A stretch of DNA of 64,000 nt from Promethearchaeota archaeon (GTDB lineage: Archaea > Asgardarchaeota > Lokiarchaeia > Sigyniarchaeales > SOKP01), in contig JBHLLT010000013.1 of assembly GCA_048938855.1 (NCBI GenBank), positions 21,150-85,149 on the forward strand, in the 5' to 3' direction. This document shows, piece after piece, positions 40,134-46,866 of the stretch. Made by a program: the position numbers and the translations under genes. The notes under the pieces are model-generated. The model saw only the letters and a list, made by a program, of their open reading frames with translations, was not told where the DNA came from and did no database searches. Position 1 is the first letter of the stretch. Each line of letters begins with the position of its first letter.

Positions 40134-43100
40134 CTACTTAATAATCGGAATGGTAAAGTAAAAAGTGGATCCTTTGTTCCTCCCTTTTGACTTAACCCTT
40201 ATTGTTCCTCCGTGTAATTCAATAATTTTTTTAGTTATAAATAATCCTAATCCAGAGCCTTCAGAAATGATGTCAAGGCCTTGTCCATACCTTTCGATTT
40301 TTCCAAATTGAGTGAAAAGCCTTTTTTTTTCTTCGCTAGTGATTCCTATACCATTATCTTCAATTGAAATTAGAATATAGTCATCAGTCTTAGCCGATTT
40401 AACTTCAATTTTTCCATTCGGGGGCGTATATTTAATGGCATTATTGATTAAATTACTCAAAACAAGATGAATTTGATCTGGTTCAAACTTAGTTATCAGT
40501 TTATCATGTATATTTAATTTTATCTCATGATTTCTCAATCTTATTAACCCTTGTAATTCTCTAACACACAACTTTATTAGAAATGACAAATCTTCCTCAG
40601 TCTTCTTCAAATCAACTGATTCAGAATCCAATTCAGCCGTTTTTAATATATCTTGAATTAGATTTTCTAATCTCTCGCATCCTAATTTTATTTCACGAAT
40701 CGTTGCTAAAACATAATCATCTAATTTTTCTTTATGTACAGTTAATAAGAGATCAGAGAATCCTTTTATTGAAACAAGTGGGGTTTTTAATTCATGAGAG
40801 GTTCTTCTGAGAAGTTCCGATTTTAAGCTGTTAAGTTTTATTAATTCTTCTTCAGCTTTTTTCTTTTCAGTAATATCCATGATTGTAACTAATTCAGCTG
40901 GTTTCCCTCGATATATAATAGGTCTTGAGAACTGATCAATCCATTTAATTTTACCATATTTAGTAAATACCCTATAAGAATAATATTGTTTTAAGTCTGA
41001 TTCACCTGATCTTAGTTTCTCGCGATATTCTCTTAAATATTGCAGATCTTCAGGATAAATTAATTTCCTTAGATCCTCTATAGTCCAATTATCAATTTCT
41101 TCGTAAGAATAGTCAAAAATTTGGAGTACAGCCTTATTTACATATACAACATTATCCGTTTGTATTATTAAAATTCCAATGAAAGCTTGCTCTGCTATAG
41201 TTCTGAAGTTCTCTTCTGATTCTCTTATTTTCTGCTCAGCTAATTTTTTTTCATTGATATTCCTTGATACGCATAAAATTTTAGTATTCCCGTGAGTATC
41301 TACGAATTTTTTACCAGTCACTTCAAACCAAAGATAATTTCCATTTTCTTTTTTTAATCGAAATTGATATTGAAAATTCCCTTTTACTAAACCTTCTTTT
41401 CCAGATTGATCCGCTAGTTGTTTATCATCCTTATGAACTAATTTGTCTCTAAAAGACTTTTCAAAAAATTGTTCTGTTTTATAGCCTAAAACTCTTGAAT
41501 GAGTCTCCGCATTAAGATATTCTACATTCTCGTCTTCATTATATACAACAATTAAATCATCTGTGTTCTCTGAAATTAACCTATATTTTTCTTCAGATTC
41601 TTTTAAACTTTCGTCTGTTTTAATTTTATCACTAATATCTATAGTCATTACAAAATCAGCGGGTCTTGCTTCAAAGCTTATTGTTTTTGAAAAGTTTTCA
41701 ACCCATATCACTTCTCCATCTTTTTTTATTACTCTATATTTATAATGAGTAACTACATCAGGATCACCTATTTGTTTCTTTCTTGCTTGATTTATCACAA
41801 ATTCTCTATCATCTGGGTGTATAAGCTTTTGAAATTCATAAGGTTCCCAATTTTGTATTTCTTCCATCGAATAACCATTTATATTGGCAGCTTGTTCATT
41901 AAAATACTTAAAAATTCCATCTTGTAATACGATTATTCCCATAAACGATTGCTCTGCGATAGTCCTGAATTTTTCTTCAGATTCTTTTAATTTTTGTTCT
42001 GCTATTTTACTTTGAGTTATATCTGCTAAAAACGCATATGTTCCTTCATAATTACCTTCCGTGTCGAAAATAGGAGTTGCTCTTATTCTTAGATAAACCT
42101 CACCACCATTTTTATGAATAAAAATTCCATCTCTCTCTCCTGATATCCCTTGCTTTCTTTTTTCTAAGTGAAATTCTGTAATACTTTTTTGTTCTTTATC
42201 CATAAATGAGAATAGTGATTTTCCAATCATTTCTTCCATTGAGTATCCTAGCATATTTGCTAAACTAGGATTAACTAAAGTTGAAATAGCATTAGAATCT
42301 ATTACCCAGACTCCTTCTATCGCATTTTCAATTAAATATCTGTATTTTTCCTCAGAAATTTCTAACTTTTTCTCATATTCTTTCCTTTTTGATATGTCTC
42401 GCGAAACAACTAATACTTTCTGTTCAGCTTTTTGATCCAAGATTTTTTTACCTCGGATATCTAACCAATGATACTTTCCATTTATATCTATGAATCTTGC
42501 TTGAATGTTTGATTCTCCATCTTCCCAACCTTGTTTAAAAGCATTTATACATCTATTCTTATCTTCAGGATGAACCCATCGTAATGCACTGTTACCAATT
42601 AACTGTTCTTTGTTTCTGCCCATAACATTTTGGAACGAGGCTTCATTTATGTATTCATATTCTATTTTATTATTAAGAATGGCAATCATATCATTGATAT
42701 TTTCAGTGATGAGACGATACTGTTCTTCAGATGCTTTTAAATTTACTTCAGCTTCCTTCTGTTCAGTAATATCCCTTAAGATGGTAATAATCTGGCTTAC
42801 TGATCCTTCTCTAATAATAGGAATTTTTAAAGTCTGAGTATATATAAGTCGATTTGATAATTCTGTTGTTTCAACACTTATTACCGACTTCTTAGTCTTG
42901 AAGACTTTACTATATTCATTAAAGATCTTATCTTCATCTAAGAAAGGAAACGCCTCAAAAACTTTTTTACCGATATTATAAGACTTTATGTTTAATGAAT
43001 CTAACCACTGATTCATAGCAGGATTTTGAAATATGATTCTCAAATCTTTATCTACAACATGCATAGCATCATTTAAAGAATTTAAAATCATGAGATATTG

Positions 43101-43523
43101 TTGCTCTGAATCTCGTAGAGCTTGTTCTCCTTTTTTAATGTCATTAATATCAGTAATAATATGAATAGCCCCACTTATTTCTCCATTGTTATTATAAATA
43201 GGGTCTGCAGAAATTTCAACCCATTTTCCATTTAGTAATTGAATATCAGACTCTCTACGCCCTGTTTCCCACATTTTTCTCACAGGGCACCAATCTACTG
43301 GTGCGTTATCCCCATGAACTATATCCCCGCAAGTATGACCTATAACTTCATCACAATTAGATTTTCCTAAAAAAATTAAGGTTGCTTTATTGCATAAAAG
43401 AATTTTATGATCCAAATTAATTAGAAACACAGCCTCCTTCATTGCATCAAGAGTGATCTGCCATAATTTATCGTTATTCATGGTTTCAGTATCAATCTCA
43501 TTTAGACTATAAGACTTTTTCAT
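40134..43523 (-). CDS. Cytoplasmic multi-PAS histidine kinase
   Basis: About 7 PAS modules; SHELKTPL, NLINNAIKYT, DNGIG, GSGLGL. Confidence 0.93.
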   Translation of the reverse strand: MKKSYSLNEIDTETMNNDKLWQITLDAMKEAVFLINLDHKILLCNKATLIFLGKSNCDEVIGHTCGDIVHGDNAPVDWCPVRKMWETGRRESDIQLLNGKWVEISADPIYNNNGEISGAIHIITDINDIKKGEQALRDSEQQYLMILNSLNDAMHVVDKDLRIIFQNPAMNQWLDSLNIKSYNIGKKVFEAFPFLDEDKIFNEYSKVFKTKKSVISVETTELSNRLIYTQTLKIPIIREGSVSQIITILRDITEQKEAEVNLKASEEQYRLITENINDMIAILNNKIEYEYINEASFQNVMGRNKEQLIGNSALRWVHPEDKNRCINAFKQGWEDGESNIQARFIDINGKYHWLDIRGKKILDQKAEQKVLVVSRDISKRKEYEKKLEISEEKYRYLIENAIEGVWVIDSNAISTLVNPSLANMLGYSMEEMIGKSLFSFMDKEQKSITEFHLEKRKQGISGERDGIFIHKNGGEVYLRIRATPIFDTEGNYEGTYAFLADITQSKIAEQKLKESEEKFRTIAEQSFMGIIVLQDGIFKYFNEQAANINGYSMEEIQNWEPYEFQKLIHPDDREFVINQARKKQIGDPDVVTHYKYRVIKKDGEVIWVENFSKTISFEARPADFVMTIDISDKIKTDESLKESEEKYRLISENTDDLIVVYNEDENVEYLNAETHSRVLGYKTEQFFEKSFRDKLVHKDDKQLADQSGKEGLVKGNFQYQFRLKKENGNYLWFEVTGKKFVDTHGNTKILCVSRNINEKKLAEQKIRESEENFRTIAEQAFIGILIIQTDNVVYVNKAVLQIFDYSYEEIDNWTIEDLRKLIYPEDLQYLREYREKLRSGESDLKQYYSYRVFTKYGKIKWIDQFSRPIIYRGKPAELVTIMDITEKKKAEEELIKLNSLKSELLRRTSHELKTPLVSIKGFSDLLLTVHKEKLDDYVLATIREIKLGCERLENLIQDILKTAELDSESVDLKKTEEDLSFLIKLCVRELQGLIRLRNHEIKLNIHDKLITKFEPDQIHLVLSNLINNAIKYTPPNGKIEVKSAKTDDYILISIEDNGIGITSEEKKRLFTQFGKIERYGQGLDIISEGSGLGLFITKKIIELHGGTIRVKSKGRNKGSTFYFTIPIIK

Positions 43524-43743
43524 GAAAAACTATCTCTAATTCTTTCAGATATTTTATATTATTTCAAATAATATCTAAAAAATGAAATAAGAAGATATAT
43601 TTAACAATTTGCAATATTTTCTAAAAAATTGTATCTAATCAGAATTGACTTTAAATTGATACGGCAATTAAGATACAATCATAAACGATAATTCAGCTAC
43701 TTAGAAATATTTTAATATAAGAAAGAATATATTTTAAATAAGT

Positions 43744-43830
43744 ATGATTTCAAATAAGACTGCGTTAAAGATGAATTTAGTTATAAAATTGATATTAGAT
43801 GATTTACTCGCAGTTTTATTATTATATTAA
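43744..43830 (+). CDS. Putative Leu-rich leader peptide (uORF) of leuS
   Basis: MISNKTALKMNLVIKLILDDLLAVLLLY*; 9 of 28 codons are Leu, ending TTA TTA TTA TAT TAA; second in-frame ATG at 43771; TATA-like TTTAATATAA at 43711..43720. Confidence 0.65.
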   Translation: MISNKTALKMNLVIKLILDDLLAVLLLY

Positions 43831-43980
43831 GCGAAACAGATCCTTTAACGCTCTTTCTTTTGTTTTTCCATGGATTTGTTCGCTTCGCTGGTGAAATCAA
43901 TTGAAAGAGATAATAGGAGACTGTTCAATTAAAAAAGGTTCAAATTGACATAAAACAAAACAAGCAAAGAGGATCAAACA
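43762..43980 (+). promoter_or_regulatory. Putative attenuator with alternative RNA pairings in the leuS leader
   Basis: GCGTTAAAG/CTTTAACGC; AAGCGAA(A)CAGATCC/GGATTTGTTCGCTT; GATCCT..TTTTGTTTT/AAAACAAAA..AGGATC covering the SD. Confidence 0.6.
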
Positions 43981-46866
43981 ATGTATAATCCACGAGAAAT
44001 TGAAAAAAAGTGGCAAGATAGATGGGAACAAGCAAAAATATTTGAAGCAAATCCAGATAAGAAAAGAGAAAAAATATTTATTACTTCTCCCTATCCTTAT
44101 GCCTCAGGACCTACTCATATTGGGCACGGGCGGAGTTTTGTGAATGGAGATATTTTTGCTAGATTTTATAGGGCTAAAGGCTATAATGTTTTATATCCGA
44201 TGGCATTTCACATTACAGGTACTCCTGTTTTAGCCATATCTTCTTCATTAGAGAGAGGTGATTATATACAAAAAGCTAGAATGAAAGAATATGTGTCATT
44301 ACATACTAAAGATGAGACAGATGTTAATGAAATTGTAAAAAGTTTTGTGGATCCTTGGAAGATTGTTAAATATTTTTCTAATACTATCAAATTAGATTTT
44401 AAATCAATTGGAATGAGTTTAGATTGGCGTAGAGAATTCACAACCGGAGACATAATTTATAATAAATTCATTGAGTGGCAGTACTTTCATTTAAAAGAAA
44501 ACTCATATATAGAAAAAGGGGAATATCCTATTTTATATTGCCCTAGAGACAAAAATGCTGTTGGAGAGGATGATATTGCTAGTGGAGATGAATTAGATCT
44601 TAATATTAATGAATTTATTTGTATTAAGTTTCCATTTGAGGACGGATTTCTAGTTGCTTCAACTTTAAGGCCAGAAACAATATATGGAGTTACAAATATT
44701 TGGATAAACCCAGACGGAGATTATGTCCAAGCTAATGTTGAAGGGGAAATCTGGATTATTTCTTATGAAGCAACCCACCTATTTAAAAATCAAAATAAAG
44801 AGATTCAAATTTTAAAAAATTTTAAGGGAAATAAAATAATTGGCAAAAAAGCTCGAGATGTGTATGGTATCAAAGAAATTCTGATTCTACCTGGAGATTT
44901 TGTTGATACTTCCACCGCAAGTGGAGTAGTTTATTCCGTTCCTGCTCATGCACCTTATGACTATATAGCTTTAGTTGATTTGCAAAACGATTTAGATCTA
45001 ATTAGGCAATTTAATTTAGACCAAAGAGAAATCGAGTTAATTTATCCTATTCAAATTATAGAATTAAAGGGATTCCATGGTTTTCCGGCAAAACTCTACT
45101 GTGAGAGATTTAATGCTAAATCTCAAAATGATAAAGAGGAACTAGATAAAGCAACAAATGAGAATTATAAGTATGAATTCTATAATGGTGTGCTTAATGA
45201 TAAATGTGGTAAATATCAAGGAATGACCGTTAGTGATGCCGCTAGACAGGTTTCAGAAGATTTAATTAAAGAAAATAAAGCTGATCGACTATATATTCCA
45301 GTAACTAAAAATCTTAAATGCAAGTGTGGAACCGAAGTCGTAGTTTCTATCCTAAAAGATCAATGGTTTCTAAATTTTAATGCAGGAAATTGGAAAGAGA
45401 AAGCATTTGAATGCCTTCATAACTTAAAAATAGTACCTGAAAAGTATCGATTAAATTTTGAAAATGTTTTTAATTGGCTTGAAAAAAGACCCTGCGCTAG
45501 AAAAAGAGGGCTAGGAACAAAACTACCTTTTAATAAGGATTGGATAATAGAATCTTTAAGTGATTCGACGATTTACATGGCATTTTATACAATTGTACAT
45601 AAAATAAAAGGGTATAAAATAAAACCAGAACAATTATCCCCTGATTTCTTTGATTTTGTATTCTTAGAACATGGGGATATAAAGAAAGTTTCAAAAATGA
45701 CAAATATAGATGAAAATATACTTAGAGAACTCCAAGAGGAATTCCTCTACTGGTATCCTGTTGACCACCGCCATACGGCGATAATGCATATCTCTAATCA
45801 TTTGAGTTTCTATATATTCCATCATGTTGCTATATTTCCAAAGAAACATTGGCCAAAAGTCATTACTTTAATCGAACCAGTTAATGTAGAAGGTCAAAAA
45901 ATGGGAAAATCAAAAGGAAATTTAATTCCTCTGGCAGAGATCCAAAAAGAGTATTCTGCTGATTTATTTAGATTTTATATCTCCCACGCTGATTTTGGAG
46001 TTTACATGGATTTTAGAGAAAAAGAAATACGTACAGTTAGAAATCACATCACGAAATTTTTTATATTTATTTCGGAAAGAATTCATGAATCACAAGATAT
46101 CGAAGCTAAGTTTGAAAATATTAATTCTAAATATTCAAAAGTAATGTTATCGAAAATCATCAAGAAATTTTGTGAAGCTCAGACAGCTTTAGAAGAATTC
46201 AACTTGAGGAGATATCTACAGACAGCATTTTATGAGATCTTTAATCTAATTCAAGATTTTTATAGAGATACAGACAATCCAATAGATTTTCTAACAATTT
46301 TCAGTATTATCTATAAAGATTGGTTAACAATTCTATCTATAACGCTACCACATTTATGCGAAGAATTATGGGAGATGAGTGGAAATGGAGGATTTATATC
46401 AAAGGTTATTTGGGGAGACTTTAATAAGCATTATATTAATGAAAACCTTGAAACTGAATTTAATTATATCTCAAATGTTATAGAAGATGTTTTTAACATA
46501 AAAAAAATAGTGAAATCAGAGAAAATAGATAATATTTATCTTTATACTGCTCTTGAATGGAAGTATAATGCTTTGAATTTGATTAGATCAAAAAAGGGTA
46601 ATTTTAAAGATATAATGTTTGAACTGAAAAAGGAAAAGGAAGTTTTAAGTAATAAAAACCTTGTTCCATTCATAAAAGACCAAATAAAAGACAGAATTTG
46701 GGATAAAGAGATACCAAAAATAAATGAAATCAAGCTACTTGAGCAATATAAATCTTATATTGAAAATCGAGTAAATTCTAAGATTGTTATTAATTCTGAT
46801 TTTGATCCAAAACAAAGATCTATTAGAGCAAAACCCTTCAAACCAGCTCTATTTATAGATATATAA
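43981..46866 (+). CDS. leuS: Leucyl-tRNA synthetase, archaeal/eukaryal type
   Basis: PYPY..HIGH, DWRREFTT, CP1 editing STLRPET and SVPAHAPYDY, IESLSDSTIYMA, KMGKS. Confidence 0.96.
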   Translation: MYNPREIEKKWQDRWEQAKIFEANPDKKREKIFITSPYPYASGPTHIGHGRSFVNGDIFARFYRAKGYNVLYPMAFHITGTPVLAISSSLERGDYIQKARMKEYVSLHTKDETDVNEIVKSFVDPWKIVKYFSNTIKLDFKSIGMSLDWRREFTTGDIIYNKFIEWQYFHLKENSYIEKGEYPILYCPRDKNAVGEDDIASGDELDLNINEFICIKFPFEDGFLVASTLRPETIYGVTNIWINPDGDYVQANVEGEIWIISYEATHLFKNQNKEIQILKNFKGNKIIGKKARDVYGIKEILILPGDFVDTSTASGVVYSVPAHAPYDYIALVDLQNDLDLIRQFNLDQREIELIYPIQIIELKGFHGFPAKLYCERFNAKSQNDKEELDKATNENYKYEFYNGVLNDKCGKYQGMTVSDAARQVSEDLIKENKADRLYIPVTKNLKCKCGTEVVVSILKDQWFLNFNAGNWKEKAFECLHNLKIVPEKYRLNFENVFNWLEKRPCARKRGLGTKLPFNKDWIIESLSDSTIYMAFYTIVHKIKGYKIKPEQLSPDFFDFVFLEHGDIKKVSKMTNIDENILRELQEEFLYWYPVDHRHTAIMHISNHLSFYIFHHVAIFPKKHWPKVITLIEPVNVEGQKMGKSKGNLIPLAEIQKEYSADLFRFYISHADFGVYMDFREKEIRTVRNHITKFFIFISERIHESQDIEAKFENINSKYSKVMLSKIIKKFCEAQTALEEFNLRRYLQTAFYEIFNLIQDFYRDTDNPIDFLTIFSIIYKDWLTILSITLPHLCEELWEMSGNGGFISKVIWGDFNKHYINENLETEFNYISNVIEDVFNIKKIVKSEKIDNIYLYTALEWKYNALNLIRSKKGNFKDIMFELKKEKEVLSNKNLVPFIKDQIKDRIWDKEIPKINEIKLLEQYKSYIENRVNSKIVINSDFDPKQRSIRAKPFKPALFIDI

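Follow-up and report, generated by a model that had tools for sequence, protein, structure and literature searches.

A leucine-rich mini-ORF and two mutually exclusive RNA helices upstream of leuS in an Asgard archaeon: a candidate ribosome-read leader

Does an archaeal leucyl-tRNA synthetase gene carry a leader through which the translating ribosome reports the charging of tRNA-Leu? Ribosome-mediated attenuation, known from bacterial textbooks, relies on hairpin terminators and on the coupling of translation to transcription, and archaeal RNA polymerase terminates in a different manner from the bacterial enzyme. The question arises at the leuS locus of a 64,000-nucleotide stretch of DNA (hereafter the window; NCBI GenBank assembly GCA_048938855.1, contig JBHLLT010000013.1, positions 21,150 to 85,149 of the forward strand) from a Promethearchaeota archaeon whose genome has a G+C content of ~30%. 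A 457 bp spacer separates leuS from a divergent PAS-rich histidine kinase gene (40134-43523, minus strand), and a first-pass annotation, made from the sequence alone, had proposed a leucine-rich upstream open reading frame (uORF) and competing hairpins within this spacer. Our analysis makes it rather probable, though well short of certain, that the leader is a ribosome-sensed gauge of charged tRNA-Leu which sets a kinetic switch between two helices, P3 and P4L (Table 1).

Table 1. Features of the leuS leader and the downstream gene, in window coordinates.
Feature	Coordinates	Strand	Evidence or remark
TFB-recognition element (BRE)/TATA-like promoter (AGAAATATTTTAATATAA)	43704-43720	+	TTTTAAT invariant in 19 genus orthologs
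Leader mini-ORF, 28 codons, 9 Leu, tail DDLLAVLLLY and stop	43744-43830	+	ATG invariant, frame conserved
P1 (43753-43764 with 43809-43820), enclosing P2 (~43775-43783 with 43792-43800)	43753-43820	+	Hairpin inside the ORF
Proposed sensor codons TTA CTC (43804-43809) and TTA TTA TTA (43816-43824)	43804-43824	+	Leu enrichment of tails
P3 (hairpin B), 5' arm 43828-43843, 3' arm 43872-43886	43828-43886	+	Covariation
P4/P4L long-range helix	43835-43925	+	Core 43851-43857/43903-43909; 43841-43844/43915-43918; 43835-43839/43921-43925
U-rich tract (consensus CUCUUUUUCUUUU) in P3 loop; 5' part is a P4 arm	43852-43867	+	Conserved in all three tail classes
leuS, archaeal-type leucyl-tRNA synthetase, 961 aa	43981-46866	+	TIGR00395 920 bits, NF008957 1075 bits, Pfam tRNA-synt_1

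The mini-ORF and the helices of the leader

Orthologous leuS genes in 19 same-genus genomes (67-82% protein identity) all have a spacer of 310-570 nt upstream. The comparison covered ~90 related loci, with 69 leaders studied in detail and 20 more added to them. The TATA-like box was found where the first-pass annotation had put it, at 43711-43720 (TTTAATATAA), and the uORF that it described opens at ATG 43744, holds 28 codons of which 9 are Leu, stops at TAA 43828-43830 and would encode the peptide MISNKTALKMNLVIKLILDDLLAVLLLY. It had been said to end in three TTA codons; the TTA run is indeed present, but one TAT codon intervenes before the stop.

This mini-ORF is kept at 19/19 same-genus leuS loci (27-29 codons, ATG 31-34 nt past TTTTAAT, tail (D)LLAVLLL), as well as in 69/69 leaders studied in detail and in the 20 more. 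Its absence from relatives, which had been named as one observation that would tell against it, was thus not what was found. Across the 69 leaders the ATG never changes and an open frame of 24-30 codons follows it, whereas the other two frames soon meet a stop (medians of 0 and 3 codons). The start ATG does not vary among the genus orthologs although the second codon does (I, L, F, S, N, V), and the central residues of the peptide change freely over a stretch whose RNA pairing is retained. The distance from the start of the TATA-like element to the ATG is 34 nt in 43 and 31-35 nt in 65 of the 69 leaders and is fixed in all classes of leader; from this spacing, a transcription start site (TSS) is predicted 2-4 nt before the mini-ORF AUG.

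It was also observed that the 5' AUG region (43741-43748) is complementary to the last part of the Leu tail (43821-43828), so that P1 could be lengthened, and that the AUGAU/AUUAU complementarity for this pairing is present in the genus consensus as well; such a pairing could restrict initiation to nascent transcripts. Two further readings were rejected. Fusion of the mini-ORF to leuS by read-through or frameshift does not fit an ATG-to-ATG distance that is not constant modulo 3 and only 9 codons that are open upstream of leuS, and for a classical -1 frameshift cassette no in-frame slippery heptamer was seen on reading the sequence.

Three alternative pairings had been proposed for the region around the end of the uORF, and all of them exist in the window: A (9 bp, -10.3 kcal/mol), B (-16.7 kcal/mol), which begins at the uORF stop as had been described, and C (-15.2 kcal/mol). 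The expectation that these stems would covary across relatives held for B, which is conserved and covarying, but not for A and C, which are confined to the window. There, A has a z-score of -3.7 and C of -3.3 against shuffled sequences; the corresponding values in 18 relatives are -2.0 to +1.4 for C, and A falls below -2 in two only. The GAGGA Shine-Dalgarno (SD) motif of leuS is itself specific to the window, and the SD region is not conserved. Because A, C and GAGGA all lie outside the conserved sequence, a choice between B and C acting by SD occlusion, as had been suggested, is not a conserved mechanism. The true competitor of B is, on the covariation evidence, the P4/P4L helix (43835-43857 with 43903-43925), which shares nucleotides with it. 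An SD-like motif stands before the start in only 2-3 of the 19 leuS orthologs (window equivalent 43955-43980). Genome-wide, such a motif precedes ~26% of well-defined starts versus 7% in control windows, and the missing SD before the leuS orthologs carries no weight because only ~26% of genes show one.

Within the mini-ORF, P2 covaries (GC 9 / UA 7 at one pair) and the residues encoded there are free to change, and the arms of P1 vary jointly between the tail classes described below (ACUACUAC/GUAGUAGU versus AAUAAUA/UAUUAUU). P3 begins with the T of the mini-ORF stop codon as the first base of its 5' arm; over the 69 sequences ~87-90% of its cells are paired, and 12 of its 15 pairs have changed on both sides. 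The stop codon lies -6 to +1 nt from the first paired base of P3 in 38 of 39 leaders, despite register shifts of 1-3 nt with respect to P3. The U-tract that had been claimed corresponds to the conserved U-rich tract of the P3 loop, which is conserved beyond the needs of P4 pairing and may serve to pause or terminate the archaeal polymerase.

P4 pairs the CUCUUUUUC tract of the P3 loop with GAAAGAG (43903-43909), and covariation in its core is extensive among the 69 leaders (GC 24 / AU 14 / GU 9 / UA 4; UA 37 / CG 13 / UG 11; UA 28 / UG 26 / CG 10). P4L draws on the 3' portion of the 5' arm of P3 (43835-43844), and in the other classes nearly the whole 30-nt strand is complementary. P3 and the full P4L are mutually exclusive, since both use the strand 43835-43844. 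In the 19 genus sequences 91% of helix cells are paired, against 38-51% in slid controls, and a structure-blind MAFFT alignment of the 3' half of the 69 leaders gave 85.8% paired cells against 35-54%. Both-side changes occurred in 20 of 27 pairs in these leaders, a count reached by 0 of 500 shuffles, and the P3 and P4L duplexes score z ~-3.5 to -5.4 against shuffled sequences.

The P4L duplex is more stable than P3 in 53 of the 69 leaders, and the minimum free energy (MFE) choice is P4L in 63. When the window sequence was folded as a transcript ending at 43892, P3 was obtained, and with the end at 43940, P4L. In constrained folds, blocking the footprint of a ribosome at the stop codon abolished P3 and left the P4 core in place, whereas a footprint at the first TTA of the run left P3 intact. 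This is the layout of a kinetic switch, with a local hairpin made first and a more stable long-range helix after it. Judged by comparison of sequences, it is shown that P2, P3 and P4 covary, that P3 and P4L exclude each other, and that the mini-ORF and its geometry are conserved.

The conserved block reaches from the TATA box to ~43925, and the last ~55 nt before leuS are not conserved. A separate conserved block, 43580-43635 (…ATATTTAACAATTTGCAC…TAAAAA…), lies ~110 nt upstream of the leader promoter. It is confined to the leuS loci of the genus, is single copy in the genome and is not found in the other leader classes; it could be a divergent promoter or an operator.

Tail codons, downstream genes and distribution

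The leaders fall into classes according to the codons at the end of the mini-ORF and the gene that follows (Table 2). Genomes and loci compared are given G and L numbers, with G000 being the source genome of the window; g16 denotes another genus and f1 the family.

Table 2. Tail classes and downstream genes. L/I/V are fractions in the last 10 codons (proteome: L 0.098, I 0.103, V 0.051), taken from the 69 leaders (44 Leu/archaeal-type, 2 Leu/bacterial-type, 12 Ile, 11 Val); the locus counts add the 20 further leaders.
Tail	Downstream gene	Loci	Example tails	L/I/V
Leu	Archaeal-type leuS, down to 31% identity to the window enzyme	59	DLLAVLLLLL	0.56/0.00/0.16
Leu	Bacterial-type leuS in two g16 genomes (G080, G098)	2	KVLLLLLL	0.65/0.00/0.10
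Ile	477-499 aa FrhB-like + ferredoxin + helix-turn-helix (HTH) protein	14	IIIIIVVVIII, SIIIVAVLIR	0.17/0.46/0.20
Val	Conserved 45-codon ORF ending IAW and two stops	11	GVVVLVVVL, EDVVVVLL	0.35/0.03/0.44

The tails are class-pure. All 61 leuS-linked tails are Leu-dominated and contain two Ile in all (one among the 44 counted, one among 15 further), and in 46 leuS-linked leaders 56-65% of the last 10 codons are Leu, the enrichment expected of cognate codons. The Leu tails are interrupted by the polar residues Q, S, K and D, which argues against selection for mere hydrophobicity. The tail of leaders G064 and G091 (g16) mixes L, V and I (MISNNTTLNASLLKVLILVL); no gene was identified downstream of them, and they were left unclassified.

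A tree was built from the P3-P4 region only, with the uORF excluded. In it, the leaders of the bacterial-type leuS genes (G080, G098; tails LLLLL(L)) nest in the Val class beside the Val-tailed leaders of the same genomes, with support of 100/98. The approximately unbiased (AU) test, with groups named after the tree had been seen, rejected a single clade of all Leu-tailed leaders (p = 0.004). In the alignment of the G080 and G098 leaders the P1 arms have been rewritten jointly, from ACUACUAC/GUAGUAGU to AAUAAUA/UAUUAUU, and the (GUA)n tail has become a (UUA)n tail with the helix kept. Because the bacterial-type leuS leaders nest among Val-tailed leaders, tail identity is taken to have changed together with the downstream gene, which looks like a recent recruitment of the leader to leuS in g16 with a change to Leu codons. 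The change from Val to Leu is the strongest argument that codon identity is selected, beyond hydrophobicity or ancestry. At the level of these comparisons, a match between the tail codons and the downstream gene is shown.

The Ile-tailed leaders (L063:647-2095, L077:630-2063, L096:599-2068 and 11 further loci) always precede a fusion of ferredoxin, FrhB/FdhB-like and C-terminal TrmB/Lrs14-type HTH parts. The 45-codon ORF of the Val class (…F.IPAE..I.E..IAW, double stop; L081 oriented 632-769, L086, L088, L093 and others) had no family match in Pfam or NCBIfam, and it is followed by a second ORF of ~60 codons and a convergent LL-diaminopimelate-aminotransferase-like gene.

A covariance model built from the 19 genus sequences was searched in genomes of the order and in a sample of the phylum. 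Matches were obtained in 91 of 151 genomes of the order (E 1e-9 to 1e-37), all in family f1 (90/131), and none in 19 genomes from the other three families of the order or in 125 genomes from 26 other families of the phylum sample. Within the genus sample, the leader is present in 19/19 genomes having the archaeal-type leuS and in 0/5 lacking it. The leader is single copy in G000 by nhmmer and the covariance model, one weak nhmmer match lying inside a coding gene. A search of 43300-44300 against Rfam with cmscan (E up to 10) returned noise only, with no T-box or other family. Neither a Leu-rich uORF nor a model match was found before the bacterial-type leuS of G000, G121, G064 and G062, or before the archaeal-type leuS of two other families (L019, L020).

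The second leucyl-tRNA synthetase (LeuRS) of G000 is of bacterial type (C28:22342-25131, minus strand; locus L031:543-3332; TIGR00396 953 bits), and its C-terminal ~320 residues match the archaeal LeuRS model. Bacterial-type LeuRS was found in 41/41 relatives searched and is the sole LeuRS of g16. An extra isoleucyl-tRNA synthetase (IleRS), MupB/type-2-like, is encoded in G000 as well (C1:2783-5647, minus strand; locus L032; TIGR00392 826 bits) in addition to a ~1090-aa IleRS-like gene seen in relatives, and class I synthetase paralogy seems common in the lineage. ARAGORN found only 13 tRNA genes in the 3.95 Mb of G000, which makes the tRNA census uninformative; the missing genes may be interrupted, atypical or in unassembled parts. 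A Ras-family GTPase gene in the leuS neighbourhood would fit an Asgard archaeon.

A proposed switch and the alternatives to it

In the mechanism that we propose, transcription would begin a few bases before AUG 43744, and the mini-ORF would be read in leaderless mode. The ORF closes with a cluster of Leu codons, and its stop codon opens the 5' arm of P3. That arm (43828-43843), with the next ~15 nt, can pair either locally with 43872-43886 to give P3, which would form first, or distally with 43903-43925 to give the more stable P4L. A ribosome reaching the stop would cover the shared arm as the P3 partner emerges, so that P3 is blocked and P4L can nucleate; with a ribosome stalled at the Leu codons, or with none, the arm would be free and P3 would form. 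The helix formed would then set the amount of full-length, translatable leuS mRNA. Several outputs are conceivable: a ribosome at the stop might abut a polymerase paused on the U-tract and affect termination there; the U-tract, exposed in the P3 loop or sequestered in P4L, might govern factor-dependent cleavage or termination; mRNA stability might be altered; or re-initiation at leuS might start out from the P4L base. The direction in which leuS would respond is likewise conjectural.

A number of observations weigh against this switch. Translation of the mini-ORF and stalling of ribosomes at its Leu codons are steps that we infer, and TTA is the commonest Leu codon of the genome (49%). Between the last conserved helix and the leuS AUG lie at least 49 nt. 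No U-run follows the 3' arm of P3 or of P4L in any class, leaving the leader with no classical terminator, and the sole conserved U-tract (43852-43867) is transcribed ahead of both 3' arms. The last five tail codons double as the P1 3' arm, so that base pairing restricts some of the Leu run. For the genes downstream of the Ile- and Val-tailed leaders no connection with these amino acids is evident, which either weakens an amino-acid-specific reading or reflects unknown biology, and the bacterial-type leuS stands without any leader in 3 of the 5 g16 genomes examined. The related sequences are also non-independent samples, and to this is added the naming of the AU groups after inspection of the tree.

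Some of these observations would be accommodated if the leader reported general translation or ribosome supply rather than leucine, either through arrest by a hydrophobic nascent tail or because a short ORF that ends where a long helix begins favours shunting, or renewed initiation at leuS; the L/I/V difference would then be a by-product of lineage and P1 pairing. We regard this as unlikely. It would fit Ile- and Val-tailed versions preceding genes with no evident cognate link, the second role of the tail in P1, the coincidence of the uORF stop with the base of the P4L helix (25-30 bp), and most leuS orthologs having no SD, a feature to be read against the ~26% of genes that show one. It would leave unexplained why the tails are class-pure, with an Ile fraction of 0.00 in the 44 archaeal-type leuS tails though Ile is as common as Leu in the proteome, why they are broken by polar residues, and why a Val tail became a Leu tail once the leader came to precede leuS. 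Chance, by which an AT-rich spacer would hold an accidental Leu-rich ORF and hairpins, we consider practically negligible. A Leu-rich small ORF (sORF) is not rare by itself and alone is weak evidence: 56 of the 13,486 ATG-initiated sORFs of 20-40 codons in the genome are equally Leu-rich (at least 8 Leu overall and at least 5 within the last 8 codons), and pairings A and C are window-specific. Conservation is decisive here, as the covariance-model matches across the order, the covariation and the conserved ORF refute an accidental origin.

The leader might instead be an independent gene for a peptide of 24-30 aa with a structured 3' untranslated region, merely syntenic with leuS and without regulation. 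In favour of this are a promoter belonging to the leader itself, an N-terminus, MISN(K/N)T(A), that every class retains, and the U-rich tract ~25 nt past the stop, which could end a short transcript. However, the conserved N-terminus falls on the 5' arm of P1, the central part of the peptide can vary freely, the hydrophobic stretch carries too much charge and is not long enough to form a membrane helix, and the conserved covarying structure extends past the U-tract; moreover, the leader precedes leuS genes of two unrelated types, in every case on the strand of the gene and at a distance of 40-100 nt. This explanation is given a low probability. A structured leader bound by protein or tRNA with no ribosome sensing, as in LeuRS autoregulation through a tRNA-like fold or in a T-box-like contact, would make the ORF incidental. 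The four conserved helices and their covariation, the Leu codons placed in the internal loop between P1 and P2, and a UGGU motif after P4 in many members are what such binding might leave behind, but an incidental ORF would hardly keep an invariant ATG at a fixed distance from the TATA box, a frame open in 69/69 leaders despite a highly variable middle, or a stop tied to the base of P3 even where the register shifts. The Val class and several members of the genus do not keep the UGGU motif, for which reason a T-box-like UGGU contact was rejected; the Rfam search points the same way, and the same scaffold precedes non-synthetase genes. We judge binding of this kind improbable.

Relation to known systems and significance

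The bacterial leader-peptide transcription attenuators include leuL, ilvL/ivbL, trpL and pheM-pheST of E. coli. Attenuators have also been predicted before leuS and trpS of Streptomyces (PMC1262725). The leader described here resembles these systems in its short ORF, whose codons are biased towards the amino acid of the gene under control, and in the alternative helices that adjoin the end of the ORF; P3 and P4L exclude each other, and the geometry suggests that the choice depends on the ribosome. As in pheST and Streptomyces leuS, the target is a synthetase gene, and the Leu, Ile and Val versions recall leuL, ilvL and ivbL. It differs in its archaeal host, in an apparently leaderless uORF and in the folding of the ORF itself into a covarying hairpin. 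There is no hairpin-plus-U-run terminator, the U-tract lying instead in the P3 loop and the P4 5' arm, and in place of the bacterial 1:2 / 2:3 / 3:4 chain a local hairpin and a long-range helix share one 5' strand.

In mycobacteria, leaderless polycysteine sORFs act as attenuators in which stalled ribosomes remodel a downstream duplex, and several loci form a 'ribulon' (Canestrari et al., bioRxiv 10.1101/834739). The present leaders are like them in having an apparently leaderless first-cistron short ORF with a run of a single codon type, in a downstream duplex that stalled ribosomes would remodel, and in sharing one design among several loci. The mycobacterial duplex sequesters the ribosome-binding site (RBS) of the next gene, whereas the helices here stop well before the leuS AUG, and pairing C, which reaches z -3.3 in the window, lies between -2.0 and +1.4 in the 18 relatives and so does not provide an RBS-sequestering duplex. 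Because it has neither such a duplex nor a classical terminator, the leader would work like the bacterial and mycobacterial attenuators and be a member of neither group.

T-box riboswitches of Firmicutes synthetase genes are cis-acting leaders that report tRNA charging. Like them, the leader before leuS would report the charging of tRNA-Leu by means of two competing helices; unlike them, it has no Rfam match and no conserved specifier or UGGN geometry, and shows the signals of a translated ORF instead. The short-ORF-dependent ribosome shunt of plant pararetrovirus leaders is eukaryotic and cap-dependent, and the likeness is one of geometry only, in that a short ORF ends at the base of a long stable helix.

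A full-text literature search, in an incomplete collection, found no archaeal case of such control. We tentatively suggest, as a proposal that falls a little short of an even chance, that one Asgard family uses three paralogous ribosome-read leaders, with Leu, Ile and Val tails, for archaeal amino-acid attenuation without a hairpin terminator. The output could be a kinetic switch between hairpin and long helix, coupled to termination at the U-tract or by a cleavage factor, or to re-initiation, and the leaders would reveal an FrhB-HTH regulator and a 45-aa protein that respond to branched-chain amino acids. If this is true, archaea too would use the translating ribosome as an amino-acid sensor, the leader would offer a handle on how organisms with two types of LeuRS deploy them, and the FrhB-HTH gene and the 45-aa ORF would be possible members of an Ile/Val response.

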